A DNA stretch of 64,000 nucleotides from Patescibacteria group bacterium (GCA_022709565.1 JAKLIO010000001.1:4368-68367), one strand, 5' to 3'; numbered from the stretch's first letter, positions 2,788 through 61,912 are shown. The notes: generated by a model not told the origin, from the sequence alone. Translations and numbers: made by a program.

Positions 2788-3585
2788 CTAAAAATATAAA
2801 GGGAAATATTTTAAAACCGGAAAAATTTGTGGCAAAATAATTATTAAAAAAACGCTTAAAACAAGAAAAGGCGCGAATGGAACTTGACTCTTCATAGTTT
2901 TTTTGCGGGCAATAATCAGCCCTATGCTTATAATTGCGCCAACAGCAAATGAGAGCACCAATGTCCAGATTATATTTGGCCATCCAACAATAAAACCTGC
3001 CAACATACCAATGTAAGCGTCGCCATAGCCCATCCATGTTTCTTTGGAATAGGCCGCTAATCCGAAAAAAAACATAAAGGCCACCAGCCCGCCCATAACG
3101 CCAGACATCGTTTTGAGGTCAAGAATCGATGTGGCTAAGCGAAAACTCTGCCAATCCGCTGCTAGAAAATATACAACCGTGACCACTACTCCCATCCAGA
3201 GAATCAGCATGGGAATTTCCATATATTTCAGATCATAGATGAAAATAACGGTTAGCAATGAAAATATAACCAGATAATAGGCGGTCAAAAGCCAGCTGGC
3301 AGAATCATATGACAGAAAAAAATAATTTCCGATGAGCGCGAAAACAACTCCCGTCAGAAATTCCGTGACCGGATATTGCCAGGAAATTTTTTCGCCGCAA
3401 TCTCGGCACTTGGCGGACAAAATAATAAAGCTCAGCAATGGAATATTGTCAAACCAGCGGATTTTTTTCTTGCAATGCGGACAATGCGAACGCTCCAAAA
3501 GCGACTCAACCGCATTGAGCCGATAGACAACAGCATTCAAAAAGCTGCCGATAATGAGACCTAAAATAAAAAATATTATAATCAT
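2788..3585 (-). CDS. pilD: prepilin peptidase (A24 family)
   Basis: The N-terminus reads LGLIIGSFLNAVVYRL. A Zn-binding CPHCKKKIRWFDNIPLLSF...CRDCGEKI block is present, the protein is polytopic, and it has a GYGDAYIGMLAG motif. Confidence 0.9.
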   Translation of the reverse strand: MIIIFFILGLIIGSFLNAVVYRLNAVESLLERSHCPHCKKKIRWFDNIPLLSFIILSAKCRDCGEKISWQYPVTEFLTGVVFALIGNYFFLSYDSASWLLTAYYLVIFSLLTVIFIYDLKYMEIPMLILWMGVVVTVVYFLAADWQSFRLATSILDLKTMSGVMGGLVAFMFFFGLAAYSKETWMGYGDAYIGMLAGFIVGWPNIIWTLVLSFAVGAIISIGLIIARKKTMKSQVPFAPFLVLSVFLIIILPQIFPVLKYFPLYF

Positions 3586-4144: not shown

Positions 4145-4239
4145 ATTTTTTTAAATTATTAAATTAATTAAAAACCTATACTAAAATTTAAATACTTCAT
4201 AATCTGCCAAAAAATAGCAGATAGAAAAATGCTTGATTT

Positions 4240-4680
4240 CTAACAACCTGTCGGTGCCTGCAGACCTCCATATAACCTTAAAAGCCATGCGCCATTACAA
4301 GCAGCTAAAGGATGGCCTGTTAAAGTAACTGTTATGGTAGGATCAGCAGCACTACAAGATGCTGTTTGTGCGTATGTAACACCTGTTGCTTTTAAATCAA
4401 CAGCTGTTGGTAAATTTGTTCCTATTCCAGCCCCACCAGCAGCAGCGCCATTGCTATCACAAATTTCTGCACCTGCAGTAGTGTTGAATGTAGCTCCTGT
4501 CTCAGAACAACAGGTGGCTATTGATGCTTTCAAACTGGCTAGAGTTTGTTTTGTAGACGAAGCTGTAGCTTTATTTCTGGCTGAACTAGTGCTAACCAGA
4601 ATAACCCCAGCCAAAATTCCGATGATCGCAATCACAATCAGAAGCTCGATCAACGTGAAACCTTTTTGCATTTTTTTCAT
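4240..4680 (-). CDS. type IV pilin (PilA-like), paralogue 2
   Basis: I place the start at ATG 4680 (MKKMQKGFTLIELLIVIAIIG), which is preceded by GGAGGTGTGAAATT. The track ORF (to 4749) adds 23 implausible residues. Confidence 0.85.
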   Translation of the reverse strand: MKKMQKGFTLIELLIVIAIIGILAGVILVSTSSARNKATASSTKQTLASLKASIATCCSETGATFNTTAGAEICDSNGAAAGGAGIGTNLPTAVDLKATGVTYAQTASCSAADPTITVTLTGHPLAACNGAWLLRLYGGLQAPTGC

Positions 4681-7904: not shown

Positions 7905-7963
7905 CTTGCCCTTTTAAATTCCACTAAAAGCGGATTCCGACAAGTCGAAGAATTTAACAGGGT
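7905..7963 (-). repeat. hairpin-family element immediately upstream of the pilT start
   Basis: The minus-strand sense reads ACCCTGTTAAATTC...GGAATTTAAAAGGGCAAGCAAACATG. It belongs to the same family as the elements at 11707, 43541, 45665 and 45899. Confidence 0.5.
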
Positions 7964-8024
7964 AAATTTTTATTTTTTAATACTTTCAAAAAAATTCTTA
8001 TCTCTGAATATATTATACCAAATT

Positions 8025-8444: not shown

Positions 8445-10154
8445 TTATCCCTTATCGTCTTCCACTTCCCCTCCGACGCTTTTGCTTCCTTCAGTCACGC
8501 GTTCAATTTCCGCCAATGTTGTCAGACCCAAAACAACTTTTAGCAAACCATCTTGCTTGATTTTTATCATGCCTTGCTTCTCGGCATGTTTTTGCACTTC
8601 AATTTCAGCTCCATTTTTTTCGGAAATTATTTCTTTTATGTCCTTGTCTATTTCAAGAGCTTCAAAGATAGCTATCCGGCCTTTATATCCGGTATTCCCG
8701 CATTCTTCACAGCCTTTGCCTTCAAAAACATGGATTCCATCTGCCAGCGTGACCCCGTATTTCTTTAGTTCTTCTTGCGGTAATGTTTCTATCTGATTTT
8801 TTATATTTTCCAAAACTTTTTGCGGAATCTTAACTTCTTGCTTGCATTTTTTGCATATCCTCCGAACAAGACGCTGGGCGGCCACAACCCTCAGGGATGA
8901 TGCCAAAAGAAAGGGCTCTATGCCCATATCCACAAGCCGTGGGATGGCTCCGATTGAACTGTTGGTGTGAAGAGTTGAAAGCACCAAGTGACCGGTCAGC
9001 GCGGCATGAATTGTAAGCTCAGCGGTTTCACTGTCGCGTATTTCTCCAACCATAATGACATTCGGATCCTGACGTAAAATTGACCGGAGGCCGCTGGCGA
9101 ATGTGTAGCCGATTTCCGGATTAATTTGGCTCTGGTTTATGCCGCTGATGGAATATTCCACCGGATCCTCTAGCGTAATAATGTTGCGCTCTTCTTTATT
9201 CAAAATACCCAAACAAGCATAAAGAGTAGTTGATTTTCCGCTACCAGTTGGTCCCGTCATCAGAATGATTCCATAGGGCTCCATAACATTCCGAACTAAG
9301 ATATCTTTTCCTTTACCCATAAGACCCATGCTCTCCAGATCAATAATTTTATTTTCCGTATCCAAAAGACGCATAACTATTTTTTCTCCCTCCACGACCG
9401 GCAAACTTGAAACGCGAAAATCGACAAAATGGCCGTCTTCATCAGAAAGCTTGAAGCGACCGTCCTGTGGTTTTCTTTTTTCGTCAATTTTAAGATTGGA
9501 AAGAATTTTTATTCTGGAAACTACTGCCCGGCCCACTTCTTTTGGAATGGACAATGAAGAATGCAAAACTCCGTCTACGCGGAAACGCACTCTATATTCC
9601 TTGCCAAAAGGCTCGATATGAATATCGCTGGCCTTGCCTTCGATGGCATGTCGGGTAATGACGCTGAGCAATTTTGTTACAGGAGCCGCCTGCATGCTAT
9701 CTATTTCTTTTTTTTCGCTCTCTTCCACTACATTAAAATCGGCATCGCCCTGCAATAATTCCATGGCTTCTTGGATGACCGTTTCTGCGCTACCTGAATA
9801 TTGCTCAGCCATATCCTTGAATATTTCTTCAGAAATCAGATACAAATCGAGTTCAATTTTCTTTTTTTCAACAATAAAACGCAAAATATTAAGCGCGTTT
9901 ATATCGTTGGGATCAACTATTCCCACTTTGACTTTTTTTCCGTTTCTCTCAAATGCGACAATCTTATGCTGAATGACAATATCGCGAGAAATAATGTTTA
10001 GAACTTCCTTGTCTATTTTTGGAGCTTCCTGCAAATAAGGCATACCTAAAAAATTCGCCTTTTCGGCCAATTCATTTGCATCCCGATCTTGTTGAGACTT
10101 GTCAGTGGAAAAATTCTTTGTTTTGGTTTGTTTTTTCTTTTCCTCTTCAGACAT
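8445..10154 (-). CDS. pilB: pilus assembly ATPase PilB (GspE family)
   Basis: Has a GspE-type N-terminal domain, Walker A GPTGSGKSTT, ITLEDPVEY, and the tetracysteine CKKCK...CEECGNTGYKGR. Confidence 0.92.
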   Translation of the reverse strand: MSEEEKKKQTKTKNFSTDKSQQDRDANELAEKANFLGMPYLQEAPKIDKEVLNIISRDIVIQHKIVAFERNGKKVKVGIVDPNDINALNILRFIVEKKKIELDLYLISEEIFKDMAEQYSGSAETVIQEAMELLQGDADFNVVEESEKKEIDSMQAAPVTKLLSVITRHAIEGKASDIHIEPFGKEYRVRFRVDGVLHSSLSIPKEVGRAVVSRIKILSNLKIDEKRKPQDGRFKLSDEDGHFVDFRVSSLPVVEGEKIVMRLLDTENKIIDLESMGLMGKGKDILVRNVMEPYGIILMTGPTGSGKSTTLYACLGILNKEERNIITLEDPVEYSISGINQSQINPEIGYTFASGLRSILRQDPNVIMVGEIRDSETAELTIHAALTGHLVLSTLHTNSSIGAIPRLVDMGIEPFLLASSLRVVAAQRLVRRICKKCKQEVKIPQKVLENIKNQIETLPQEELKKYGVTLADGIHVFEGKGCEECGNTGYKGRIAIFEALEIDKDIKEIISEKNGAEIEVQKHAEKQGMIKIKQDGLLKVVLGLTTLAEIERVTEGSKSVGGEVEDDKG

Positions 10155-11146: not shown

Positions 11147-11701
11147 TTATTTAATAAGCATCTCTAAATCACATTTGATATTGCCGCTTTTTTCATCTTT
11201 AGCAATTCCCGTAAGGTTTACGCCCGTTAGATTCTTTGAATTTTTAAAATTCATAATCTGGCGCGATATCTCGTTGTAACTGTTGGATTCGAAAGTTATT
11301 TCAATTTTTCCGCTGTCATCATAGTTCAAACTTGATACCACAACTGCATTGTTAATATAATTTTCAAAATCATCCAAAACATTTTTTACCTGCACTCTGG
11401 AGACTTCTCCGTCCGTAATTTTTAAATTTTCTTTTATGTGTTGCAATCGGGTTTGGACATCAATAACCTCACCAAGCTCAGCAAGATTAATTATTGAAAT
11501 TTTTTTATTTTCAATTTTTTGAAGCGCGGCTTCGTTATTTTTTTCGACCTGCGATACATAAAATTTTAAACCAACAAAAACCAGCAAAGTCAGGACAACC
11601 AGCATCAGTGAAAAAAACACTCCCCCGCTAAAAAATTTACTATTGGCTGCAAGCCTTTTTTTAATTTCTTGATCGTCTTGGTATAGATTTATATTAGTCA
11701 T
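11147..11701 (-). CDS. PilN-like pilus assembly protein
   Basis: Has a short cytoplasmic N-terminus (INLYQ), one TM, and sits directly after pilM. Confidence 0.55.
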   Translation of the reverse strand: MTNINLYQDDQEIKKRLAANSKFFSGGVFFSLMLVVLTLLVFVGLKFYVSQVEKNNEAALQKIENKKISIINLAELGEVIDVQTRLQHIKENLKITDGEVSRVQVKNVLDDFENYINNAVVVSSLNYDDSGKIEITFESNSYNEISRQIMNFKNSKNLTGVNLTGIAKDEKSGNIKCDLEMLIK

Positions 11702-11706
11702 TTTTT

Positions 11707-11747
11707 CTTGCCCCGTTAAACCCGCCTTTAGCGGATATTAAACTGGG
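11707..11747 (-). repeat. hairpin-family element between pilM and the pilN-like gene
   Basis: The minus-strand sense reads TCCCAGTTTAATAT CCGC taaag GCGG GTTTAACGGGG CAAGAAAAAATG. It has an outer stem plus an independent apical stem. Confidence 0.55.
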
Positions 11748-27045: not shown

Positions 27046-27165
27046 TTTTATAATTTTCAATTTACAATTTTCAATTTTCAACCAATTTTCAATTTTTCAA
27101 TGTTTTAAATAATTAATTCATTAGAAATTTATTGTAAATTGTTCATTGATCATTGATTATTGAAA
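27046..27165. repeat. cargo-less inverted low-complexity array (TTTTCAATTT arm / ATTGTAAATTG..ATTGAAA arm)
   Basis: The left arm (ttttcaatttacaattttcaattttcaacc...) and right arm (..attgtaaattgttcattgatcattgattattgaaa) are partly complementary, for example caatttacaat/attgtaaattg. Confidence 0.55.
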
Positions 27166-28539: not shown

Positions 28540-28576
28540 CAAAGTCTAAAGCTTAAAGTCTAATATCTAAATTAAG
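28540..28576. repeat. left inverted-repeat array (AAGTCTAA units) of four-helix-bundle cassette 1
   Basis: caaagtctaaagcttaaagtctaatatctaaa is complementary to the array at 28967-28995. Confidence 0.6.
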
Positions 28577-28581
28577 TATAA

Positions 28582-28944
28582 ATGCCTGCGTTTTTGAAGA
28601 ATAATTTAGAAGAAAGAACAACTAATTTTAGCAAAAAGGTTGTAATTTTTTTAAAGACAATAAAAAAAGACAATTTGAGTTTGCCTCTAATTAACCAGCT
28701 CGTAAGATCAGCTACTAGCATAGGCGCTAACTATTTTGAAGCTGGTGGATCCTGTTCAAAAAAAGACTTTAAAAATAAAATATATATTTGCAAAAAAGAA
28801 TGCAGAGAAACTAAATATTGGCTGGAGATTTTAGCCGAAGCTCATCCTGAATCTAAGAATATATGCAGGGAGCTATGGAAGGAAGCTCATGAATTAACTT
28901 TAATTTTTTCTAAAACAATCCTGACACTAGAAAATAAAAAATGA
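28582..28944 (+). CDS. four-helix-bundle protein (23S rRNA intervening-sequence protein family)
   Basis: Carries the family signature ..QLVRSATSIGANYFEAGGSCSKKDFKNKIYICKKECRETKYWLEIL... Confidence 0.85.
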   Translation: MPAFLKNNLEERTTNFSKKVVIFLKTIKKDNLSLPLINQLVRSATSIGANYFEAGGSCSKKDFKNKIYICKKECRETKYWLEILAEAHPESKNICRELWKEAHELTLIFSKTILTLENKK

Positions 28945-28966: not shown

Positions 28967-28995
28967 TTTTAGACTTTAGATTTTAGACCTTAGCC
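28967..28995. repeat. right inverted-repeat array of four-helix-bundle cassette 1
   Basis: ttttagactttagattttagaccttagcc abuts the trpS stop codon. Confidence 0.6.
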
Positions 28996-29979
28996 TTAAA
29001 TGATGAATCCAACTTTCTTTTTCACTTCTTGCATTTTCTTTTCAGCAATCAATCGAGCCTTTTCCGCGCCTTCTTTTAATATCTTTATGACTTCTTCATC
29101 AGAATAAGAATTGTATTTTTGTTGGAAATCTTTCAAAAAAGAAACAACTATTTCGGCCAAATCATTTTTGAATTCTCCATAGCCTTTGCCAGCATACATT
29201 TTTTCAATATCTTTCGGACTTTTTTCGGAAAAAAAAGAATGAATGTTTATAAGATTTTTTAGCGCAGGCTTCTCTTCGCTATAAATTATTTCGCTGCCGC
29301 TATCCGTCACGGCTTTTTTTATTTTTCTACGTACTGATTCAGCGTCATCCAAAAGAGCAATGTAATTATATTCTGAAGAAGATGACTTATCCATTTTTTT
29401 TGTCGGATCATCAAGCCCCCTGATTCGCATCCCGCTTTTTTTCACAAATGGCTCTGGAATAACAAATGTTTCTCCAAAATTATTATTAAACCGCTTGGCT
29501 AAAGTGCGAGCCAGTTCTACATGTTGCACCTGATCCTCTCCGACTGGAACTTTTTCTGCATCATAAAGCAGAATGTCCGCGGCCATCAGAACCGGATAAT
29601 CATATAGACCAACACCGGCACTTTCCCTGCCATTTTTTTGAGACTTATCTTTGAACTGAGTCATCTTGTCCAAATCAGATACTCGAGCAACAGTATTTAA
29701 TATCCATGCCAATTCCGCATGCTCAGCTACTTGCGATTGAACAAATATGGCCGATTTTTTTGGATCAATTCCGGAAGCCAAATATATTTTCGCAATTTCA
29801 ATAGTCCTCTTATTTAAAGTCTTTGGATCTTGTGGAACTGTTATTGCATGCATATCAACGACACAAAAAACGGCTTCGTACTCGTCCTGAAAATCAAGCC
29901 AGTTTCTGATTGCACCGATATAATTTCCAATTGTAAGGCTTCCACTTGGCTTAATGCCCGAAAAAATTCGTTTTGCCAT
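28996..29979 (-). CDS. trpS: tryptophan--tRNA ligase
   Basis: Has FSGIKPSGSLTIGNYIGA (HIGH-region variant), KMDKSSSS (KMSKS) and GEDQ.QH. The 327-aa length fits. Confidence 0.93.
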   Translation of the reverse strand: MAKRIFSGIKPSGSLTIGNYIGAIRNWLDFQDEYEAVFCVVDMHAITVPQDPKTLNKRTIEIAKIYLASGIDPKKSAIFVQSQVAEHAELAWILNTVARVSDLDKMTQFKDKSQKNGRESAGVGLYDYPVLMAADILLYDAEKVPVGEDQVQHVELARTLAKRFNNNFGETFVIPEPFVKKSGMRIRGLDDPTKKMDKSSSSEYNYIALLDDAESVRRKIKKAVTDSGSEIIYSEEKPALKNLINIHSFFSEKSPKDIEKMYAGKGYGEFKNDLAEIVVSFLKDFQQKYNSYSDEEVIKILKEGAEKARLIAEKKMQEVKKKVGFII

Positions 29980-30048
29980 AAATACATTAATTAATTATCA
30001 ATTGCTTTAATAATACCCAAAACAGGCTTTTTTTGCAAACCAAATTAA

Positions 30049-30084
30049 GTATTTCGTATTTTGTATCCAGTATTTGGTATTTAT
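30049..30084. repeat. short-period GTATTT(C/G)GTAT array
   Basis: agtatttcgtattttgtatccagtatttggtatttat lies directly 5' of 168-bp repeat copy A. Confidence 0.6.
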
Positions 30085-30086
30085 AG

Positions 30087-30254
30087 GCGCCATATGAAGT
30101 ACGTAGGCGAAGCGCGAGTGATGAGCGTTAAAAAATTTTAAAACGGAGCGTAGCGAAGTGCAAATTTTAGCGAAGAACGAAGCGCTTGCCATCAGTATCT
30201 TCATCGGGCGCGACTTTCTTTTGTAACTTTTCTTATCTAGAAAGAAAAGTTAAT
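30087..30254. repeat. 168-bp structured repeat, copy A (candidate small RNA; strand unknown)
   Basis: About 96% identical to 38540-38707 (4 substitutions, 2 single-nt indels). The ends pair (GCGCCATATGAAGTAC / GTATCTTCATCGGGCGC), and GGCGAAGCGC pairs with GCGCTTGCC. Confidence 0.7.
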
Positions 30255-30318
30255 TCTAGAAATTGCATAAAAAGAAAGGTAAAAAATATATTGCTTACAA
30301 AAAATAATTTTTTACAAA

Positions 30319-30349
30319 TAAAAAACTGCTCATTTCTGAGCAGCTTTTT
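30319..30349 (-). terminator. bidirectional rho-independent terminator after rnj
   Basis: The stem CTGCTCA tttc TGAGCAG is flanked by A6 and T5. Confidence 0.7.
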
Positions 30350-30357
30350 CATTTCAT

Positions 30358-32319
30358 TTATACTTCGATTACTACTGGTAAAACCATCGGTCGTCTTTCT
30401 GTTTTAGTAAACAAGAACGATCCGACAGATTCACGGATATTATTCTTCACATAATCCCAATTGACCGGCAAACCTTCGGAAGTTTTTTCTTTGACCACCT
30501 TTTCCACCACCCGCTTTGTCGCATTCACCAAATCAAAATTTTCTTTGACGAAAATAAATCCGCGCGACGTGATTTGCGGCGTACCGATAATTTTTTTGGT
30601 TTTGGAATCTATAATAACGACAATCGTAAACATTCCGTCCTTAGCCAAAAGCTGTCTGTCTCTCAGCACCACTTCACCAACGTCGCCCACGCCCAATCCG
30701 TCTACCATGACATAAGCCGTGTCCACTTTGTTTGGCAAAATCTTGGCTTTGTTTTCATGGACCTCCAATTGATGGCCATTGTCCAAAACAAAAATATTTT
30801 CTTTGCGAATGCCGACTTTTTCTCCCAGTTTGGCCGCTTCTTTGAGCATATAGTGATTGCCATAGACCGGCAGAAAGAAATCAGGCTTGATCTGACGCAA
30901 GATATCTTGAATATCATTAGCGTTGCTATGTCCGCTGGTATGGACATCCAAAATATCAGAATGGATAACATTATCGCACTTGCGATAGAGATCATCTTTC
31001 AGCCTTTGCACAGTGCGTTCATTGCCTGGAACAATCGACGAAGAAAATATGATTGTGTCATCTTTTTGGATTCGCACAAAGCGATGTTCGTCATTGACGA
31101 TGCGCGACAACACAGCATTGCCTTCGCCCTGCGCGCCGGTGCAAATCACCACCACTTTATTTCTCGGATGTTTTTGAATCTCATTAACTGAAATCAGAGT
31201 CTTTTTATGCGCTTTGATATAGCCCAATTCCTTGGCAATTTCGATATTCATTTTCATGCTATATCCATCCAGTGCCACTTTCTTGCCAATACTTTCCACG
31301 TATTCGATAATTTTTCCAATACGCTCGATTTGTGAAGAAAATGTGCCGATAATAACCAGTCCCGTGGCTGAGCTGATAAGTTCGTTCAAGTTTTTATACA
31401 TTTCCGATTCCGGTTTGTCGGCCGATTCATTGTCCGTCGCACCCAAGCTTTCTAGCATAAGTATCCGCGGTGAAGGCAGTTTCGACAAATGATCATAGGT
31501 GACCATTTTATGATTCGGATTCTTGTCCATCGTCCAGTCACCGGGATGGATTATTGTTCCGTCCGGAGTTCTAATAATAACACCGACTGCATCCATCACA
31601 GAATGCTCCACTTCAAAAAATTCAATTTCAAATTTTCCCAGTTTGACTTTGTCAGAGACGGAATTGACTCTGATGATTTTCAAATTTTGCGCTGAATTTT
31701 TGTCGAAGTCTTCCATCTTTTTCTTGACCAAGGCCAATGTCAAATCACGTCCGACAATCGGTGGATAGCCGAGTTCTTTGAGCAAGATCGGAGCCGCTCC
31801 AATATGATCGAGATGTCCATGGCTCAAAAGAACTCCGCGGACATTTTTTTCCTTGCCTTTCAGATAACTCATATTTGGAATAATATAATCTATTCCCGGC
31901 ATGTCTTCTTCTGGAAACTGAATGCCCATATCTAAGATTATGATGTCGGAGTCATATTCAAACATGGTCATATTGCGACCAACTTCCTCATTTCCTCCCA
32001 TCGGGGTTATGCGCAGATTTTTGCTGACCACATTCCCCTGAGACTTCTGAGTCCTTGTGTTATTGCTGATATTAATCCTCCTGCCAATATTCTGGCTAGG
32101 ACGCCTGCTTGGAGCATTACGCCGTGAAGGCTGGCCGGAATGCTGGCTAACATTTTTGGAAGGTTTTTCCATCCTGACATGATAGGCTTTTTGCTCTATC
32201 ATCTTGCCCAATTGTTTTAGCGGCTTTTTGAACGCAGCCGCTTGCCTGTTGCCTACCTGTCTAGCAGGCAAAGGGTTCGCGTTGGCAGCCATCTGGCCGC
32301 CTTGTTTTTTGTTAAACAT
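30358..32319 (-). CDS. rnj: ribonuclease J (with a ~100-aa basic N-terminal extension)
   Basis: Has the metallo-beta-lactamase motif LLSHGHLDHIG, beta-CASP features and HTSGH. Confidence 0.9.
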   Translation of the reverse strand: MFNKKQGGQMAANANPLPARQVGNRQAAAFKKPLKQLGKMIEQKAYHVRMEKPSKNVSQHSGQPSRRNAPSRRPSQNIGRRINISNNTRTQKSQGNVVSKNLRITPMGGNEEVGRNMTMFEYDSDIIILDMGIQFPEEDMPGIDYIIPNMSYLKGKEKNVRGVLLSHGHLDHIGAAPILLKELGYPPIVGRDLTLALVKKKMEDFDKNSAQNLKIIRVNSVSDKVKLGKFEIEFFEVEHSVMDAVGVIIRTPDGTIIHPGDWTMDKNPNHKMVTYDHLSKLPSPRILMLESLGATDNESADKPESEMYKNLNELISSATGLVIIGTFSSQIERIGKIIEYVESIGKKVALDGYSMKMNIEIAKELGYIKAHKKTLISVNEIQKHPRNKVVVICTGAQGEGNAVLSRIVNDEHRFVRIQKDDTIIFSSSIVPGNERTVQRLKDDLYRKCDNVIHSDILDVHTSGHSNANDIQDILRQIKPDFFLPVYGNHYMLKEAAKLGEKVGIRKENIFVLDNGHQLEVHENKAKILPNKVDTAYVMVDGLGVGDVGEVVLRDRQLLAKDGMFTIVVIIDSKTKKIIGTPQITSRGFIFVKENFDLVNATKRVVEKVVKEKTSEGLPVNWDYVKNNIRESVGSFLFTKTERRPMVLPVVIEV

Positions 32320-34263: not shown

Positions 34264-34306
34264 TTAATGACTAATTTCCAATGACTAATGACAAGTCAAT
34301 GACAAA
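34264..34306. repeat. left inverted-repeat array (ATGAC(T/A)AA units) of four-helix-bundle cassette 2
   Basis: aatgactaatttccaatgactaatgacaagtcaatgacaaag is complementary to the array at 34662-34715. Confidence 0.6.
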
Positions 34307-34319
34307 GTCCAAATAACAA

Positions 34320-34715
34320 CTAATACTTTCTCTTGGCAATACTAGAAAAAATAAGCGTTAATTCATGTGCTTCTTTCCATAATTTTCTACAATAATCAGC
34401 ATTGTTAGGTTCGGCAGTTGCTAACATATGAAGCCAATAGGTTGTTTCCTTAGACTCTTTTTTACAAATACCTATCTTATGAACAAAGTCCTTTTTTGAT
34501 TCTGCACAATCAGCCTCCATATAATTAGCGCCAATGCTAGTAGCGCTACGAATCAACTGGCTAGTAATTGATCTATTTATATTATTTTCTTTTATTTTTT
34601 TGACAAAAATTATAACCTCACAACCAAACTTAGATGTGCGTTCAGCTAAGTTGTATTTATTTTTGTCATTTTGATTTTGGTTTTGATTTGTCATTGGTAA
34701 TTTGTCATTTGTCAT
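34320..34715 (-). CDS. four-helix-bundle protein (23S rRNA intervening-sequence protein family)
   Basis: Carries ..SQLIRSATSIGANYMEADCAESKKDFVHKIGICKKESKETTYWLHML... The N-terminal MTNDKLPMTNQNQNQND is encoded by the repeat array. The start overlaps the pgi stop as ATGA. Confidence 0.85.
   Translation of the reverse strand: MTNDKLPMTNQNQNQNDKNKYNLAERTSKFGCEVIIFVKKIKENNINRSITSQLIRSATSIGANYMEADCAESKKDFVHKIGICKKESKETTYWLHMLATAEPNNADYCRKLWKEAHELTLIFSSIAKRKY
34662..34715. repeat. right inverted-repeat array of four-helix-bundle cassette 2
   Basis: tttgtcattttgattttggttttgatttgtcattggtaatttgtcatttgtcat. Confidence 0.6.
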
Positions 34716-35320
34716 TCTATGACTTCCAATCCACCTAAATCTTCTTTTTCGATTGATTTATACAGAGGATTTTTTTTGAGCGCCGGCTGGCCTTCGTGTT
34801 CAACGACATAATACGCAAAACCTCGCATTTTTTTGACCAATTCATAATCTGCATGTCCAGGAAAACTAACAGGATCGCGATCTTCAAAATCAACCGGACT
34901 GTCATCAGCCGTGGCAAAATAAGTCTGGCCGGTATTAACAACCAAGTGGCCTTCCTCGGGAGACATGAAAATTTTATCACCCACTTTAACTGGGATTGCC
35001 TTAAACTCCTCCACTTCGTCGGCAATCATCTGCCCCTCCGCATCTTTTTTTAATTTTTGCAAAAGAGCCACGCCTTCTCCGAAAATAATCCAGTAAGTTT
35101 CGCTCAAATCTCCGACGTGGTAATGACCGTACGTTTTAATATATTCTCCCGAAATTGTGCCTGGTTCCCAGACAGTGATATTTTTCTGATCAACTCCCCC
35201 GCGAATCATATAATAATGTATAGCTGGGCCAACACCCTTAGGATCCATCAAAACATCTTGCATTTTTTCCTGTGTTCGGGCTGCATAATGCTTGGGAACA
35301 TTTTTGAAATCTGTTTCCAT
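34712..35320 (-). CDS. pgi: cupin-type (archaeal-type) glucose-6-phosphate isomerase
   Basis: Has the TYGHYH metal motif, a cupin core of about 200 aa, and a position beside manC and the phosphohexomutase gene. The family was recognised from memory. Confidence 0.7.
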   Translation of the reverse strand: METDFKNVPKHYAARTQEKMQDVLMDPKGVGPAIHYYMIRGGVDQKNITVWEPGTISGEYIKTYGHYHVGDLSETYWIIFGEGVALLQKLKKDAEGQMIADEVEEFKAIPVKVGDKIFMSPEEGHLVVNTGQTYFATADDSPVDFEDRDPVSFPGHADYELVKKMRGFAYYVVEHEGQPALKKNPLYKSIEKEDLGGLEVIE

Positions 35321-37320: not shown

Positions 37321-37451
37321 ACCCTGTTAAATAAGATTTGAATTTCATTGGGAAACTCTGACTTACCGTTATTATATTTTTATTCTCTAAATTCCAACCC
37401 TGTTCCAGTCTTCAAATCTTAATTTTGACAAGCAAGATTATTTAACAGGGT
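37321..37451 (-). repeat. long-range hairpin abutting the secG start codon
   Basis: ACCCTGTTAAATAAGATTTGAA (37321-37342) pairs with TTCAAATCTT (37411-37420) and with TTATTTAACAGGGT (37438-37451). The sense strand ends ..TTTAACAGGGTAAATG. Confidence 0.5.
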
Positions 37452-37550
37452 GTGTTTTTTGATTATGTAAAACTTATTTAAACTTACCAAAACCCCATCC
37501 TAAAGTCAAGCTGAACCAGCTAATTTTGCCTTATTTAAAGCTTTTTTATC

Positions 37551-38486
37551 TTAAACACTAAGTTCACCTATTTTTTTCTTAAACTGTTCGAAAATCTTCG
37601 GACCATGCGGATCAGGCAGGAAAATCAGCGCGTCATCATCGGCATAGACCATGCTTCCCTCTTGATGAGTTTTCGGATTTTTCATGATTCTTTGTTTTTC
37701 TGTTTTCTTAAGCATTTTTTCAATCCAGCCAAAAGACAAAATAATTTCACCCAAATTTCTGATGGCTTTGGAAAAAGCCGAATCGGAAATTATTTTCAGC
37801 GGAGGAATTTCAGAGATTCCGTAGGCAGGCTTTATTGATTTGATCCAAGAATTTCTTATTTGAAAACGCTTATAAGTTTCAAATCCATATATTGGAAAAA
37901 GAAACATATACTCGCTGGCAGAATACAGATCTTTCGTGCTTATTTCCAAAGACTCATCGGTTATAAAAAAATTGAGACAGACCCGGTCGGAAATTTTATT
38001 TCCGTGCCTTCTTTTTCTAAAAAGATGCAGCAGCAGTGTTGCCAATGTTCGTCCTGTCCAAATTTTACCCTGCTTGAAAACAAGCAAAATATCCAGATCG
38101 CTTTTGGCTTTGGCATTTTTCATGGCCAGCGCTCCGGTCACTCCAATCATCTTGATGAAAGGGACAAATCTGAGCAAATGAGAAGCTTTTAAAAGAATTT
38201 TCATCTTGCCCATGGAAATTTTATTATTCTTGATGCGCCTATCCACTAAAAATTTCCGTCCTTTCAAAAAGTAGAATCCGTTATGTTTTTCTATAAATTC
38301 AGCCAATTTTTCATCGGCCAGTTGTTTTGTAATTTCAGCCAGATTAATTTGCAATTCTTGTTTGTTATCCAAAAAATAATCCGTTCTGATTAAATATTTC
38401 CATATTTCAAAAGCCGTCAGCGGGTAGTCAAATCCGTCGTAATATATGATCGTCGCCAAAATGTGTTTATTAAGCTTGCTGGACAT
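37551..38486 (-). CDS. hypothetical protein, possible nucleotidyltransferase fold
   Basis: GVTGALAMKNAKAKSDLDILLV resembles the pol-beta-type NTase G[SG]...DxD motif, but the match is weak. Confidence 0.4.
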   Translation of the reverse strand: MSSKLNKHILATIIYYDGFDYPLTAFEIWKYLIRTDYFLDNKQELQINLAEITKQLADEKLAEFIEKHNGFYFLKGRKFLVDRRIKNNKISMGKMKILLKASHLLRFVPFIKMIGVTGALAMKNAKAKSDLDILLVFKQGKIWTGRTLATLLLHLFRKRRHGNKISDRVCLNFFITDESLEISTKDLYSASEYMFLFPIYGFETYKRFQIRNSWIKSIKPAYGISEIPPLKIISDSAFSKAIRNLGEIILSFGWIEKMLKKTEKQRIMKNPKTHQEGSMVYADDDALIFLPDPHGPKIFEQFKKKIGELSV

Positions 38487-38487
38487 A

Positions 38488-38533
38488 AATTTCGTATCTA
38501 GTATCTAGTATTTCGTATTTCGTATTTCGTATC
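38488..38533. repeat. short-period GTATTTCGTAT / GTATCTAGTAT array
   Basis: atttcgtatctagtatctagtatttcgtatttcgtatttcgtatc lies directly 5' of 168-bp repeat copy B. Confidence 0.6.
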
Positions 38534-38539
38534 CCATCT

Positions 38540-38707
38540 GCGCCATATGAAGTACGTAGGCAAAGCGCGAGTGATGAGCGTTAAAAAATTTTAAAACGGA
38601 GCGTAGCGGAGTGCAAATTTTAGTGAAGAACGAAGCGCTTGCCACAGTATCTTCATCAGGCGCGACTTTCTTTTGTAACTTTTCTTATCCTAGAAAGAAA
38701 AGTTAAT
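38540..38707. repeat. 168-bp structured repeat, copy B
   Basis: See copy A (30087-30254). Same orientation and same type of flanking array. Confidence 0.7.
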
Positions 38708-38806: not shown

Positions 38807-39844
38807 CTAAACACTTTCTTCACCCACTTCACGTTGATCAAAAAAATGATTGAAAACCACGTTAATCGAAGTAGCAATCGGCACAGCCAAAACCGCTCCC
38901 AGCACTCCGCCCAGCTTGATGCCGATCATTAAGGCCAAAATTACCAAAATCGGATTTAGTCCCACCACCTTTTTCATAAGCTGCGGAACGATGATGTTGC
39001 TTTCAATTTGCTGAATAATTGTCAGGATGCCTAAAACCATTAGCCCCGTAACCGGAGAAATCAAAAAGCCCACCACGGAAGCCAGCCCGATTGAAATTAT
39101 CGGCCCGAGATACGGAACGATTTCCAAAAGACCCGCCAAAATAGCCAGGGCCAAAGCATATTTGACTTTGAAAATAGACAGAGCAATAAAATCCAAAAAG
39201 AAAATTATGGCCATAAGCAGAAGCTGTCCGGCCAGCCAATTGCCAACTTTTTTCTTGATACTGTCTGCGATAGCAATAATCCGGCCCTGCTGCGCCTGCG
39301 GCGTTATAAAGAGCAAGAATTTGTTCATGCCGTCTTCCTTGACCAACATGTAGAAAGTCAGCGCCAAAACCACGACAACTGAAATGAAAAATGAAAAAAC
39401 CCCGACCGTAGTGGAAAATATCTGATTGGATGATTGGAAAAAACCACCCGTATTTTGCAAGAGAAAATCGCTGGTATTAAATTTTATATTATACGACTGC
39501 GCGTAGCGACTTATACTATTCAAAAAACTTTCAAACGAACTTGCATAGCCCGGCAATTCTTTGGCAAATTCCTGAAATTGGCTGATAAGCGGCGGGATCA
39601 GAAAAGAAAAAAGCAGTCCTACAATCAGCAGCATGATTGCATAAATAATCAGCACGCCCAAAGGACGCGGGATTTTGCGTCTGGCCAGGAAGTCGACCGG
39701 CGAATCGAAAGTAGCGGTCAAAATAACCGACAAGAACAATAAAGCCAGTACATCACGCACCAAATACAAAAACCACAGACCCAAGATGATGGAAAAAATC
39801 TTAAGTATGGTTGCTGTTGAAATGCTGATTAAGCGATTGTTCAT
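38807..39844 (-). CDS. AI-2E family transporter (PerM/UPF0118)
   Basis: 345 aa with about 8 TM segments and family-typical blocks such as ..LEIVPYLGPII... Confidence 0.75.
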   Translation of the reverse strand: MNNRLISISTATILKIFSIILGLWFLYLVRDVLALLFLSVILTATFDSPVDFLARRKIPRPLGVLIIYAIMLLIVGLLFSFLIPPLISQFQEFAKELPGYASSFESFLNSISRYAQSYNIKFNTSDFLLQNTGGFFQSSNQIFSTTVGVFSFFISVVVVLALTFYMLVKEDGMNKFLLFITPQAQQGRIIAIADSIKKKVGNWLAGQLLLMAIIFFLDFIALSIFKVKYALALAILAGLLEIVPYLGPIISIGLASVVGFLISPVTGLMVLGILTIIQQIESNIIVPQLMKKVVGLNPILVILALMIGIKLGGVLGAVLAVPIATSINVVFNHFFDQREVGEESV

Positions 39845-42119: not shown

Positions 42120-43451
42120 TTATTTATTAATTTTTCTGATTAATGATAGCGGCTGAATATCCTTTTTATTAATTTTAACATAATATAGTTTCTCGTGCCC
42201 ACCGTGCGCCGAAACCACTTTATTTTTACCTTCATCATAAATAGCCAGAATTTTGGCCGGAATATTCTTCTCAGGCGTCACAATTTCAATTTTATCTTCC
42301 TTGCGCAGAGCATTGTGGCTTTTAACTTTAAGTTCGCCGCCGTTAGCCTCTAGAACTTCACCGACAAACTGAAACGCGTCACTGGTTTGCTGACCGGCGA
42401 AACTATGCTCAGGTTCATTGCCCAAAAGAAAGCCTTCCGTATATCCCCGATTAGCCAGCTTGTCCAATTCCTGTTCTGACCATTTTTGAATTTTTTTAAT
42501 TTCGGCTGAACTTTTTTTCGCTTCGATTGCATCAATCACTTTTCTGTAGGCGCGCACTGTGTTGGCTACATAATAGGCGCTCTTGGTGCGTCCTTCGATT
42601 TTGAAAGCCATGACTCCCGCTTTTCTAAGCTCGGTTAAATGTTTTATCAAATTCAAATCCTTGCTGTTAAAAAAATATGTCCCATGTGAATCTTCCTCCA
42701 GTTCTACCTCCGTACCACTTTGCATTTCAGTTACTATAATATTTTTGTATTTTTTCGCATTTTGTTTGGAAATTTTATCATTGTGATTTGTTTGAAAATT
42801 GGAAATTGAAAATTGATCATTGGGGCGGTACGCCCATCTGCACGGTTGCGTGCAGCCTCCTTCATTCGCGCTTTGGTTTGACATCCACTTGCTCAAGATG
42901 CAGCGGCCGGAATAGCTCATACACATGGCGCCATGGACAAAATATTCCAATTCCAGTTTGGGAACTCTTTTGTGAATTTCCTGAATATCTTCCAGAATGA
43001 CTTCGCGCGCTAAAATAACTCTTTTGACACCCGCGGCATGCCAAAATTTGGCCGCGCGCCAGTTAGTCGTGTTAGCCTGCGTGCTGAGATGGATGTCCAC
43101 GCCCGGCAAATATTTTTTAGCCAATTCTATAATTCCCGGATCAGAAATGATCACGCCGTCGATTTTTATTTTCCTGAGAAATTGGAGATGTTTTTCCACA
43201 ACCAGCAAATGATAGTTATGCGCGTAGATATTCACCGTCACAAATATTTTCTTGCCCCGCGCATGCGCGTATTCAGCCGCCATCGCCAAATCTTTTTCGG
43301 AAAAATTGTTGACTCTGGCCCGCATGGAAATGTCCGGCGTGCCGGCATAAACCGCATCCGCCCCGTATTCTATGGCATATTTAAGCTTTTCCAGACTCCC
43401 CGCCGGCGCCAATAATTCTATTCGATTCTTGGAACTTTTTACAATTCTCAT
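42120..43451 (-). CDS. U32-family peptidase-like protein (with an in-frame insertion)
   Basis: Reads IELLAPAGSLEKLKYAIEYGADAVY..., ..CMSYSGRC.. and ..GGCTQPCRW. Confidence 0.85.
   Translation of the reverse strand: MRIVKSSKNRIELLAPAGSLEKLKYAIEYGADAVYAGTPDISMRARVNNFSEKDLAMAAEYAHARGKKIFVTVNIYAHNYHLLVVEKHLQFLRKIKIDGVIISDPGIIELAKKYLPGVDIHLSTQANTTNWRAAKFWHAAGVKRVILAREVILEDIQEIHKRVPKLELEYFVHGAMCMSYSGRCILSKWMSNQSANEGGCTQPCRWAYRPNDQFSISNFQTNHNDKISKQNAKKYKNIIVTEMQSGTEVELEEDSHGTYFFNSKDLNLIKHLTELRKAGVMAFKIEGRTKSAYYVANTVRAYRKVIDAIEAKKSSAEIKKIQKWSEQELDKLANRGYTEGFLLGNEPEHSFAGQQTSDAFQFVGEVLEANGGELKVKSHNALRKEDKIEIVTPEKNIPAKILAIYDEGKNKVVSAHGGHEKLYYVKINKKDIQPLSLIRKINK
42762..42822 (-). repeat. low-complexity element inserted in frame in the U32 gene
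   Basis: The coding strand reads ..CAATTTTCAATTTCCAATTTTCAAACAAATCACAAT.. and encodes DQFSISNFQTNHND. It is homologous to, and in the same frame as, the recG insert. Confidence 0.7.
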
Positions 43452-43540
43452 AGTGTTTTGACAAGCTTCAGAATACCCCTAATTGCCCTAATAGTCAATA
43501 AAAACATGCCTATAAGCAGACATGCTTTAAAATAATTTTA

Positions 43541-43580
43541 CCCCGTTAAATTTTCACAAAGTGAAACTATTTAACTGGGG
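43541..43580 (-). repeat. hairpin-family element
   Basis: The plus strand reads CCCCGTTAAAT TTTCAC aaa GTGAAA ct ATTTAACTGGGG. Confidence 0.6.
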
Positions 43581-43633
43581 TGTTTTAAAAGTGTTACTTA
43601 ACTAGTTACTGAACACTTTATTATTACTTCTCT

Positions 43634-45217: not shown

Positions 45218-45652
45218 TTACTCGCGATCCGCTTTTATTCTTTTTTTAAAAATTACGGACGCGATGAAAATTATTACGAAAAAAATGCAACCCATAACGC
45301 AGGTCGGAAGTCCGAAAAAATAGGCTCCGAAACCGCTCTGCCAAAGTAGCGGAATTTCCCCTATCGAAAAATAGCCGGCAAAAATTATTCCGGCCAACGA
45401 AACGCCAAACAGCACTTTTGCTAAATATTCCACATTCCATTTGCCCAGCGCTAAAATTATGGAGAAAATAAAAAGCAAGCAAAACATTGCAAATCCGAAA
45501 TAGCAAGCCGGCATTCCTAAAAAAAGCGGGCAAGTTTCCCCGAAGGCGCAGGTTGCTGAGAAGAATTTCACTCCGCTCATATAGCCGGAAAACAAAACTC
45601 CGACCATGGAAGCTATCAAAAAGAAAATTTTAAAATTTTTATATGTTTCCAT
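45218..45652 (-). CDS. 4-TM membrane protein with conserved Cys pairs (possibly VKOR-like)
   Basis: Contains SATCAFGETCPLFLGMPACYFG and GLPTCVMGC. The functional call is tentative. Confidence 0.5.
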   Translation of the reverse strand: METYKNFKIFFLIASMVGVLFSGYMSGVKFFSATCAFGETCPLFLGMPACYFGFAMFCLLFIFSIILALGKWNVEYLAKVLFGVSLAGIIFAGYFSIGEIPLLWQSGFGAYFFGLPTCVMGCIFFVIIFIASVIFKKRIKADRE

Positions 45653-45664
45653 ATTTTTTACTTG

Positions 45665-45701
45665 CCCCGTTAAATTCCGCTTGCGGACTATTTAACTGGG
45701 G
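45665..45701 (-). repeat. hairpin-family element abutting the 45652 start
   Basis: The plus strand reads CCCCGTTAAAT TCCG cttg CGGA ct ATTTAACTGGGG. The sense strand ends ..TTTAACGGGGCAAGTAAAAAATATG. Confidence 0.6.
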
Positions 45702-45727
45702 TTTTTTATTTATTAAACGGTCTAAGC

Positions 45728-45889: not shown

Positions 45890-45898
45890 ATATTCTTG

Positions 45899-45938
45899 CC
45901 CCGTTAAATTTCCACGAAGTGAAACTATTTAACTGGGG
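45899..45938 (-). repeat. hairpin-family element abutting the 45889 start
   Basis: The plus strand reads CCCCGTTAAAT TTCCAC gaa GTGAAA ct ATTTAACTGGGG. Confidence 0.6.
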
Positions 45939-45960
45939 TTTTATATTTTATAATTATTTA

Positions 45961-54984: not shown

Positions 54985-55232
54985 CACCTGAAAAATTTTA
55001 AAAGCTAAATTTTAAATTTTAATTGAATTTTAAATGATTTAATCCATTAAAACATTTAATCATTAAGATTTGATTTAAAATTTTAAATTTAAAACTTAAA
55101 ATTATTATCAGTATTTGTTTAATAAAATATAAAAAAATCACAAAGCGTTTTTTAAAAACTCTAATGTGATTTTACAAAGTTATAAGAAAGCGATTTAAGT
55201 TTAAGCCAAAACAACCAACAGGTCCTGCTCAA

Positions 55233-55739
55233 ATGCGCATTAATGACGGCATCAGAGCTGTTCGCGTTTTTGTCATTGATGAAATGGGAAAACAGCTGGG
55301 AGAAATGGCAATTTTCGAAGCCATAGCCTTGGCTAGAGAGCACATGTTGGATCTGGTTGAAGTTTCGCCCAAAGCCGTCCCACCCGTATGCCGCATCATG
55401 GATTATGGCAAGCAACTCTACCAGCAGTCTAAACAAATGCGGATTGCCAAGACTAAGCAGAAAAGAGTTGAAACGAAAGGCGTGCGCCTGGGAGTCAGAA
55501 CCGACACCCATGATCTTAATTTCAAAAAAGCACAAGCCGAAAAATTTTTGGGCCACGGCGACAAGGTCAAGATAGAAATCGTGCTCAAAGGCCGTGAAAA
55601 AGCTCATCAAGATTTAGCCAGAAAAAACCTGCAAGATTTTATTTCAGGAATAACCGCTCCCTACAAGATCGAAGAACAGATCAAAAGATTCCCTGGAGGA
55701 TTCAATGTTATCCTCGCTCCAACTGAAGAACAAAAATAA
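55233..55739 (+). CDS. infC: translation initiation factor IF-3
   Basis: Reads RINDGIRAVRVFVIDEMGKQLGEM...LDLVEVSPKAVPPVCRIMDYGK. The frame is open back to 55170, so a non-ATG start such as ATA 55182 is possible. Confidence 0.9.
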   Translation: MRINDGIRAVRVFVIDEMGKQLGEMAIFEAIALAREHMLDLVEVSPKAVPPVCRIMDYGKQLYQQSKQMRIAKTKQKRVETKGVRLGVRTDTHDLNFKKAQAEKFLGHGDKVKIEIVLKGREKAHQDLARKNLQDFISGITAPYKIEEQIKRFPGGFNVILAPTEEQK

Positions 55740-55740
55740 T

Positions 55741-55846
55741 TTCTAATTTTCAATTTATAATTTCTAAGCAATTCCCAATAATTCAATTTCAAAATTCAAA
55801 AATTTAAGCATTGTTTGAAAATTGAAAATTGAGAATTGAAAATTTT
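55741..55846. repeat. cargo-less inverted low-complexity array (TTCAAAA arm / TTGAAAA arm)
   Basis: ..attcaatttcaaaattcaaaaattt.. is complementary to ..tttgaaaattgaaaattgagaattgaaaatt... It lies between infC and rpmI. Confidence 0.6.
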
Positions 55847-56123: not shown

Positions 56124-56154
56124 CTAAAAGCTAAAAGCTAGAAGCTAAAAGCTA
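56124..56154. repeat. short-period GCTAAAA array
   Basis: ctaaaagctaaaagctagaagctaaaagcta lies just upstream of rplT. Confidence 0.55.
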
Positions 56155-61854: not shown

Positions 61855-61912
61855 AAAGATATACTTTTAAATTTTAATTTTTGTATTTTATTTTTGCCAT
61901 TTATGGCAATTA

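Follow-up and report, generated by a model that had tools for sequence, protein, structure and literature searches.

The window analyzed here (the whole 64,000-nucleotide stretch) comes from a Candidatus Moranbacteria MAG; its trpS protein is 100% identical to a protein of "MAG TPA: Candidatus Moranbacteria bacterium", with identity falling to ∼75% in the next relatives. Two copies of a structured repeat lie within it, both on the + strand and both in spacers flanked by minus-strand genes. Copy A, delimited with BLASTN and nhmmer at 30087-30252 (to 30254), sits between the stop of rnj (RNase J) at 30358 and the start of trpS at 29979. Copy B, delimited in the same way at 38540-38705 (to 38707), sits between the stop of an AI-2E transporter gene at 38807 and the start, at 38486, of a gene for a 311-aa protein that belongs to no family. 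BLASTN aligns the two (168/169 nt) with 96.45% identity, 4 mismatches, and 2 gaps (E = 1.9e-77), nhmmer scores them at E = 2.7e-49 and 7.5e-43, and their starts are 8453 nt apart, so that the positions, shared strand, ∼96% identity, 8.45 kb separation, and gene context given in the original prediction all stand. No third copy is found in the 64-kb window by BLASTN, nhmmer, or the covariance model. A 65-aa ORF does run through copy A (30007..30204, minus strand); it matches nothing in Pfam and lacks a counterpart at copy B, in keeping with the earlier view that the repeat is non-coding.

Each copy is preceded by a heptamer word array, as first noticed; TRF places these at 30044..30083, in the 5′ region of trpS, and at 38489..38533, abutting the start codon at 38486 of the 311-aa gene. 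At least 14 further spacers in the window also carry arrays with a heptamer period, and each array has a word of its own. In a relative with ∼75% trpS identity (L168), the transporter gene and the 311-aa gene are 37 nt apart with the element absent, and this whole orthologous spacer consists of array words that stand directly upstream of the start codon. Because so many other spacers carry arrays and the empty site keeps its words, the arrays are not specific to the element. The GTATTTCGTAT arrays belong to the neighboring genes and lie outside the element, and the part of the earlier description that joined them to the unit does not hold.

The minimum-free-energy fold of copy A (−51.9 kcal/mol; z = −2.87 versus dinucleotide shuffles) contains every helix named in the original prediction: the outer helices GCGCC/GGCGC plus AUGAAGUAC/GUA-U-CUUCAU, the second helix GGC(G)AAGCGC/GCGCUUGCC, and an 11-bp closing hairpin, UAACUUUUCUU/AAGAAAAGUUA. 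The fold, the covariance model, and the covariation described below delimit a rod domain at 30087..30211 (+), made of P1 (GCGCC/GGCGC), P2, P3, P4, an invariant core, and an apical loop; the covariance-model match covers 30085-30218 (35.3 bits, E = 1.9e-07). Alignments place the 5′ strand of the core, GAGCGTTAAAAAATT (GAG bulge, P5 CGUUAA, P6 AAAUU), at 30123..30137 (+) and its 3′ strand, AATTTTAGCGA, at 30163..30173 (+). Beyond the rod lie a pyrimidine tract, Y1 (CTTTCTTTT, 30214..30222, +), which mirrors the 5′ arm of the hairpin and is predicted to be a Hoogsteen third strand, and an AU-rich hairpin, TAACTTTTCTT/loop/AAGAAAAGTTA (30224..30252, +), identified by the fold and by covariation at the base of its stem. 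The first reading had overlooked the mirror-repeat tract ahead of the closing hairpin, which is the triple-helix signature taken up below. Copy B is organized alike on the + strand, with its rod at 38540..38663 by BLASTN/nhmmer and the covariance model (match 38536-38672, 40.2 bits, E = 6.5e-09), its core and apical loop at 38576..38626, and its tract (38666-38674) and hairpin (38676-38705) together at 38666..38705. The six differences between the copies fall where they had been placed, except for the C-to-T at 30171/38624. This change had been assigned to an internal loop; it sits in a helix that is invariant across the family, where it turns a G-C pair into G-U, giving the core 3′ strand AATTTTAGTGA in copy B, and the pairing is kept only on the + strand. 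After copy A, a ∼35-nt 3′ tail (AAT..GAAWTTTG..AAAAAGAAAG, 30253..30289, +) is still alike in A, B, and window-type copies elsewhere, including L042, and repeat family D5 covers this region at 76% identity over 97 nt; it is uncertain whether the tail is part of the unit.

The same locus, with identical element sequences, is present on contigs of several anaerobic-digester assemblies, and three of these contigs break off within the element, which is typical assembler behavior at a repeat. When one genome per species was scanned with 18-mers, full copies turned up in a Candidatus Moraniibacteriota MAG (L026, L042) and a MAG labeled Bdellovibrionales (L034). They are 88–92% identical to copy A, but nothing in the window is homologous to their flanking genes. 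A search pattern derived from these copies, GAGCGTT-NNN-AAATT-N(10-40)-AATTTTAGCGA, which is anchored on the core 3′ strand, matches more than 118 metagenome loci among the matches listed, together with one viral contig. A viral origin was rejected, as IMG/VR gave only one weak core-only match. The pattern matches split into two classes. Class 2, to which the window copies belong, numbers ∼45 distinct copies on AT-rich contigs, and its apex is long and variable; the apex of class 1 is a short GC hairpin, its flanks differ, and its contigs are richer in GC. With the covariance model R1, 56 full-length copies are retrieved from 41 loci on AT-rich contigs of genomes and metagenomes; nhmmer also retrieved copies. 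Rfam 15 was scanned at the gathering threshold with the window and 12 loci, and by E value with copy A, an S1 copy, and a class-1 copy; these scans returned no family for either class, consistent with the lack of an assigned family in the original prediction. The sources searched on structured RNAs or repeats of the CPR describe no such element, and no described CPR- or Patescibacteria-specific non-coding RNA family was found in the literature searched. The window repeat is one subfamily of a large, uncatalogued family of structured repeats from Candidatus Moranbacteria and other AT-rich CPR-like contigs. This family is absent from Rfam and from the literature searched and is far larger than first noticed. 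The words GTGATGA and GCGAAG, noted earlier in the core, are confined to one subfamily and do not define the family, whose invariants are instead GAGCGUU..AAAUU and AAUUUUAGCGA.

The length (∼170–190 nt) and the pairing of the ends in a closing stem had suggested 6S RNA. In 6S RNA, a central bubble flanked by long helices mimics an open promoter, and a genome has one gene, rarely two, at a conserved locus. The element lacks a large central bubble, is multi-copy (2 in the 64 kb of the window, up to 3 within 8 kb in L026 and L082), and is variably present, the orthologous sites in L168, L169, and L170 being empty. Rfam gives no 6S match at the gathering threshold for the window and 12 loci, nor with E up to 10 or 5 for copy A and an S1 copy, and the resemblance is not upheld.

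Folded singly, 43 copies adopt one shared architecture despite very different sequences. The unit is ∼170 nt, with an interrupted rod (P1–P4) of ∼45 bp whose interruptions are small bulges and internal loops only, the largest conserved one being 3x1. P1 is often CCGCAC/GUGCGG and is GCGCC/GGCGC in the window type; P2 and P3 are exemplified by UUUCUAAAUUCC/GGAAUUUAGA, CAAAUCUGCCG/CGAGCAGUUUG, and GGCAAAGCGC/GCGCUUGCC; P4 is a short helix adjoining the core. The core opens with a 3-nt GAG bulge facing a single A and continues with helix P5, CGUUAA/UUAGCG, which has a fixed U-G pair, then a 2-nt bulge, and then helix P6, AAAUU../..AAUUU. Its 5′ strand is invariant in 31/31 and 13/13 aligned copies, and the P5 pairs are nearly fixed (among 55: CG 52, GC 51, UG 55, UA 54). 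The apex spans 10 to ∼60 nt between the two core half-sites and comes in several recurring types common to different rods; window-type apices carry one or two GGA motifs, the second being made by an A-to-G change in copy B. Some copies hold extra small GC-rich hairpins inserted at various points.

Several known elements were set aside. A box C/D motif or k-turn fits poorly, since GTGATGA occurs only in the window-type subfamily and two canonical, covarying pairs (UA, CG, GC, UG) adjoin the GAG bulge. A T-box leader was rejected because the element is antisense to trpS, its second copy precedes an unrelated gene, its neighbors are diverse, and Rfam returns no match; an integron attC site was rejected because the core sites do not fit.

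When all subfamilies were aligned together, misalignment of the outer helices left MAFFT and RNAalifold with the core and the 3′ hairpin alone, and a single subfamily was therefore aligned with a hand-drawn structure and a covariance model. Thirteen copies with a CGTTTCTAAATTCCAG-type P3 arm (S1) were aligned by sequence, their structure was drawn by hand, and model R1 was built from them. In the R1 alignment, whose fitting to the model makes the covariation figures lean toward structure, 87.2% of cells are paired versus 67.0 ± 0.6% in shuffles, 35 of 42 pairs have changed on both sides, and 440 double-change cells are present versus 127.5 ± 10.9 in shuffles, a number that 0 of 500 reach. Sliding the partners by 1–3 columns leaves only 31–46% pairing. 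The sequence-only S1 alignment has the same compensatory pattern, and the conserved structure proposed from two copies is borne out by helices that covary across the family.

The pairing is also strand-specific. In 40 of 43 copies, the + strand gives a more stable fold than the complement does (sums of −1958 versus −1651 kcal/mol), and the folded copies contain 148 G-U pairs on the + strand versus 57 on the complement. The U-G pair of P5 never varies, one P5/P6 pair alternates between A-U (35 copies) and G-U (20 copies), and the sole core change in copy B is the G-C to G-U replacement described above. Within the R1 alignment, G-U exceeds A-C by 160 to 60, a modest 85 to 60 without two fixed positions. 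With moderate confidence, we take the fold under selection to be that of an RNA read off the + strand; in the window, this strand is antisense to the genes on either side. That the element is transcribed, from which strand, and where its transcripts end are matters that we infer from such features of the sequence.

The genomic distribution is that of an element in turnover. L026 and L082 each carry three copies within ∼8 kb; head-to-head pairs lie 32–50 nt apart in L034, L049, L052, L115, L120, and L136, with partial partners in L141 and L054, and L153 has a tail-to-tail pair. Paired copies come from different subfamilies, and copies that are ∼92% identical occupy unrelated contexts. The R1 model finds no match across 11–21 kb in L168, L169, and L170, relatives with ∼75% trpS identity. 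In L167, another such relative, the rnj-trpS spacer contains two copies of other subfamilies, along with a 26-nt fragment of a window-type 5′ end oriented as copy A. Because of these empty sites and fragments, copies are seen to be gained, lost, and broken on the time scale of species divergence, and the earlier idea of a mobile module fares well in that the element comes and goes between genomes as a module. The neighbors are ordinary housekeeping genes, diverse across the family, and show no enrichment of PF05635 (IVS-protein) genes or of any other neighbor to which the element might be linked.

Orientation, counted with a crude ORF caller, is biased. The downstream neighbor is convergent in 28 of 36 cases, and the 5′ neighbor is a divergent gene in 26 of 44, often 10–100 nt off. 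Convergent spacers number 13 and divergent ones 4; within spacers of tandem genes, the element is antisense in 14 and sense in 3. Sense copies are depleted where the flanking genes are co-directional.

The element shares with MITEs a multiplicity of similar copies that are polymorphic for presence and absence, and it could be a DNA-only mobile element, MITE-like or derived from a single-strand transposon, whose hairpin would arise incidentally from terminal inverted repeats and have no role as RNA. Copy-number variation, empty orthologous sites, fragments, and clusters all accord with this, as do the 96% identity of A and B in different contexts, the ∼92%-identical copies with unrelated flanks in other genomes, and the assemblies that break within the element; replication-coupled single-strand transposition could even produce the orientation bias. 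However, the invariant positions lie mid-rod rather than at the termini, which covary freely. The unit is also asymmetric because its 3′ domain lies outside the inverted repeat: P1 is inverted, but the conserved Y1 and hairpin stand outside it on one side only, and MITE terminal inverted repeats were rejected for this reason. The G-U asymmetry favors one strand. No transposase, reverse transcriptase, or integrase is among the 25 commonest of 161 families in 95 neighboring proteins, nor among the 25 commonest of 61 families in 51 window proteins. There is no recognizable target-site duplication; neither A nor B shows a direct repeat at its flanks, and the filled and empty sites of the window and L168 are too diverged to place the junctions. 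A purely DNA-level explanation is, in our judgment, quite improbable.

A second alternative is that the copies are independent genes for trans-acting sRNAs (6S-like, a protein sponge, or guide-like), each with its own promoter, in which the rod would serve as a scaffold, the invariant module as a protein handle, and the apex as the working part. The strand-specific structure and the invariant module suit such genes, and so do the several conserved apex types carried on different rods and the GGA motifs of window-type apices, including the one newly created in copy B. A hairpin at 30326..30343, 74 nt downstream of copy A, is the two-way intrinsic terminator of rnj, flanked by an A-run and a T-run and terminator-like on the + strand as well; it is a candidate stop for + strand element transcripts, and two-way intrinsic terminators lie 50–75 nt past the hairpin in copy A, L042, and L167. 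Against this, no conserved promoter was detected: a −10-like hexamer (TAnnnT) at a fixed distance upstream of P1 shows no positional enrichment across the family, and no + strand promoter-like site was found ahead of window copy A or B. Genes of this kind would also be at odds with presence/absence between close relatives, with fragments, with several copies in a few kilobases, and with head-to-head pairs so closely spaced, and the 6S version lacks both a 6S match and a central bubble. We think it unlikely that the copies are sRNA genes.

The 3′ domain follows P1 and consists, in order, of the pyrimidine tract Y1, a linker of 0–5 nt, and a hairpin whose 5′ arm (Y2) is pyrimidine and whose 3′ arm (R) is purine. 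Y1 repeats Y2 as a mirror image rather than directly or inverted, and it reads parallel to R with T over A and C over G. In copies A and B, Y1 TTTCTTTT accompanies R AAAGAAAA; in copy A, the match in parallel register falls in the purine run at 30241-30248. Tract and arm change together elsewhere, as in TTCCTTTT with AAGGAAAA (L085), TTTTCTTTC with AAAAGAAAG (L088), TTTTTCTTT with AAAAAGAAA (L102), TCTTTT with AGAAAA (L122), and TTTTTTC with AAAAAAG (L051), and at least eight purine patterns have matching tracts. Among 36 distinct copies, 87% of the purine run is matched in parallel (7.6 of 8.8 nt), and 0 of 2000 tract-arm permutations reach this value, a count that overstates significance since the copies are not phylogenetically independent. 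This computed parallel tracking is characteristic of a U-A-U/C+-G-C major-groove stack. The parallel match is longer than the antiparallel (Watson-Crick) one in 26 of the 36 copies, equal in 10, which have mirror-symmetric words, and shorter in none. The pairs at the base of the hairpin stem covary (TAAC/GTTA, CCAC/GTGG, GCCGC/GCGGC, CTAC/GTAG). Pairing of Y1 with a downstream purine tract was rejected as a family feature, because the tract is a Watson-Crick complement in A, L042, and L081 and is mirrored or absent in L115, L034, L141, and others.

The parallel register reads as the signature of a pyrimidine-motif triple helix of U-A-U and C+-G-C triples, and Y1 is predicted to lie in the major groove of the hairpin and form 7–10 of them. 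The C+-G-C triples require cytosine protonation. In A-form geometry, loop 1 of a pseudoknot crosses the deep groove of stem 2, with 1–2 nt spanning several base pairs, and the short Y1 linker is plausible because the arrangement is the same as that of loop 1 in the deep groove of an H-type pseudoknot. In L052, L097, and L142, a GC palindrome interrupts Y1; if folded out, this insert could let the two halves of the tract rejoin. Since no U-run follows the hairpin, classical intrinsic termination is not expected there.

A mirror repeat in duplex DNA is also a signature of H-DNA, for which a homopurine-homopyrimidine mirror repeat with a 4–6 nt centre is the classical motif, and the element has such a repeat. 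The unit might then be a DNA-structure or promoter module, in which H-DNA or a cruciform blocks polymerases, or the complement of AATTTTAGCGA, TAAAAT, serves as a −10 box for the gene on the 5′ side; minus-strand promoter-like sites do use TAAAAT inside both window copies, and the frequent, close divergent 5′ neighbor would be the gene so driven. A fixed DNA site is, however, ill matched to an apex that ranges from 10 to ∼60 nt between the half-sites. Other subfamilies show no conserved −35 box, head-to-head pairs have no gene to drive, and a promoter has no need of covariation in 35 of 42 helix pairs or of a G-U bias that favors RNA. We regard this explanation as very improbable.

The predicted triplex can be compared with those that have been described. 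The MALAT1 triplex has nine U-A-U triples and one C+-G-C (PMC7583470), and the MALAT1, MEN-beta, and PAN ENE triplexes block 3′-to-5′ decay (PMC7583470). The element is predicted to share with them a U-A-U stack with occasional C+-G-C triples on the 3′-most purine tract. In the ENE, however, a U-rich internal loop clamps a downstream A-rich tail, whereas in the element a 5′ pyrimidine tail would fold into the groove of its own hairpin; the strand order (Hoogsteen strand, Watson-Crick pyrimidine arm, purine arm) also differs, and no A-minor G-C clamp of the ENE type was identified in the element. The H-type pseudoknot triplexes of telomerase RNA and of the SAM-II, SAM-V, and preQ1-II riboswitches (PMC7583470) resemble it in that a U-rich strand 5′ of the helix lies in the deep groove, parallel to the purine strand, and in that a linker of 0–2 nt is possible; unlike the element, they have 2–5 triples, a second stem, a ligand or catalytic role, and a location in 5′-UTRs. 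These three riboswitches were rejected, as Rfam returns no match and the tandem-gene spacers are predominantly antisense (14 versus 3 sense). In the reviews searched (PMC7583470, PMC13541005), the only bacterial major-groove triplexes are those of riboswitches and group II introns, with 2–5 triples, and the only stability-element triplexes are those of viruses, animals, plants, and fungi along with their transposable elements. The literature searched, with reviews of 2020 and 2026, contains no bacterial stability-element triplex and no triplex-clamped bacterial repeat.

In its behavior, the family is closest to structured repeats of the ERIC, BOX, and Correia type, and in its 3′ domain it is closest to triple-helix stability elements. 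ERIC/IRU, BOX, and Correia (NEMIS) sequences are dispersed, transcribed intergenic repeats of enterobacteria, pneumococci, and Neisseria. Like them, the elements are 100–200 nt imperfect palindromes in spacers, with many copies per genome, presence/absence at orthologous sites, internal insertions, and modular variants; the orientation-dependent effects on neighboring transcripts known from those repeats would also apply here. Unlike them, and with no sequence relation to them, this family keeps one architecture over very divergent sequences by compensatory change, and it has an invariant module mid-rod, a mirror-repeat 3′ domain, and no known transposase partner.

On balance, we consider it probable, if only mildly so, that the element is a proliferating structured repeat selected as RNA, whose triplex-capped 3′ hairpin would protect or end transcripts. 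The pyrimidine tract would clamp its own 3′ hairpin into a triplex, and the clamped hairpin would act in cis on any + strand transcript that contains it, as an exonuclease-resistant 3′ cap and possibly as a block to transcription. Sense insertions between co-transcribed genes would then be harmful, and insertions that follow convergent genes, or that run antisense to operons, would be tolerated or useful, so that a cap or block acting in cis would explain why the element is rare in the first setting and accepted in the others. Where a terminator lies 50–75 nt downstream (copy A, L042, and L167), it might stop the transcript, with trimming back to the triplex setting the mature end. The invariant module may be the binding site of a conserved factor, used either for RNA function or for the spread of the element; mobility and RNA function are compatible and not mutually exclusive. 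We put forward only tentatively, and as more doubtful than not, the bolder proposal that this is the first bacterial RNA class with a MALAT1-like, genomically encoded 3′ triple-helix cap, carried by a non-coding RNA element that propagates itself and has spread across CPR genomes (and, as the related short-apex class 1, across other genomes), with the GAG/CGUUAA-UUAGCG module as a putative handle for a conserved protein, possibly of the copying machinery.

Members of the CPR/Patescibacteria have tiny genomes with few recognizable regulators, and a family so abundant and so constrained is a candidate for new RNA biology in this group. A model of the element would improve annotation, as it accounts for contig breaks in CPR MAGs and removes spurious ORFs such as the one of 65 aa, and it provides a marker for genome dynamics in CPR lineages. 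Should the triplex prove real, bacteria would join viruses and eukaryotes, with their stability elements, as carriers of long U-A-U triple helices, and the covariation table would be a natural set of compensatory triple variants for biophysical study.

The invariant core of the element recurs in a set of short-apex relatives, which we refer to as class 1, and at least 76 pattern matches of this type are present in loci L050-L166 among the matches listed (for example, L073 9014-9050, L059 1611-1647, and L118 4967-5003). In these units a short GC hairpin, GAGCGTTAAGAAATTGCCCGGTGGGCAATTTTAGCGA, caps the shared core, and AGGAGCCAGNCTGCAGGG comes after the unit. The contigs that host them are richer in GC, and the class-1 relatives return no Rfam match. 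Several of the units adjoin a tRNA-gene 3' half located on the opposite strand; in L118, a unit of ~65 nt lies between direct repeats of ~70 nt that include the tRNA 3' half. A pyrimidine tract plus an AU hairpin is also found in class-1 loci L064 and L124.

Tiny GC-rich palindromes are seen inside copies of the element in L052 (~2075-2095), L097, L136 (3380-3400 and ~3535-3555), L141 (~4270-4285), and L142, with CCTGCCTGCCGGCAGGCAGG, CCGCCAGCTGGCGG, and TCCGCCGCGGCGGA as examples, and L026 carries an inserted 30-nt hairpin at 4171-4200. The point of insertion varies among copies, and in one case, L141, the palindrome stands in place of the whole core. These inserts, the L026 hairpin included, appear to make up a miniature-insertion family of their own.

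Within both window copies the minus strand carries sigma-70-like promoter matches, at 30164-30192 and 30135-30164 in copy A and at 38617-38645 and 38588-38617 in copy B, directed towards trpS and the gene for a 311-aa protein, respectively. The matches use TAAAAT, the complement of the invariant ATTTTA of the element; the -35 part is not conserved in its other subfamilies.

The element-free rnj-trpS spacer of L168, the orthologous locus in a relative, has two other long imperfect hairpins at 9745-9850 and 9867-9945 (CAAGCGCATATT...AATATGCGCTTG and GCCCCGCACTAACTTTT...AAAAGTTAGTGCGGGG), neither of which is detected by R1, the covariance model of the element. In a second repeat family in the window (43532-43587, 45890-45945, 45642-45716, 11688-11720, 37437-37466, and 7934-7971), T-rich sequence comes after a hairpin, (C)CCCGTTAAAT...ATTTAACTGGGG(T); the repeat looks like a reused intrinsic terminator.

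Two PF05635 genes (23S rRNA intervening-sequence protein, Avd-like) occur at 28582-28944 and 34320-34715. The former looks like an inserted cassette, since the orthologous trpS-PGM spacers of L167 and L169 are without it. Inverted arrays of 7-8 nt words at 28541-28571 and 28968-28997 bracket this gene and could form a stem around it. Heptamer-period tandem arrays are held by many intergenic spacers of the window (25835-25864, 25878-25932, 27052-27110, 27138-27163, 28968-28997, 34265-34292, 34686-34716, 42792-42816, 54993-55103, 55737-55844, 56124-56154, and 61865-61896), and several, on inspection, adjoin gene starts. The word differs from array to array (AATTTCC, TTCAAAA, ATTGATC, TTTAGAC, TAATGAC, ATTTGTC, TTGAAAA, CTAAAAG, and others), and the arrays are a genome-wide feature.

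Among the 25 commonest of 61 families (51 proteins), the window encodes two GARS paralogues and a type IV pilus cluster, the latter comprising PilM, T2SSF, two T2SSE ATPases, and five pilin-like proteins with the N-methylation motif. Two further products, a Mu Gam-like protein and a rolling-circle Rep (PF23343), may mark an integrated element.
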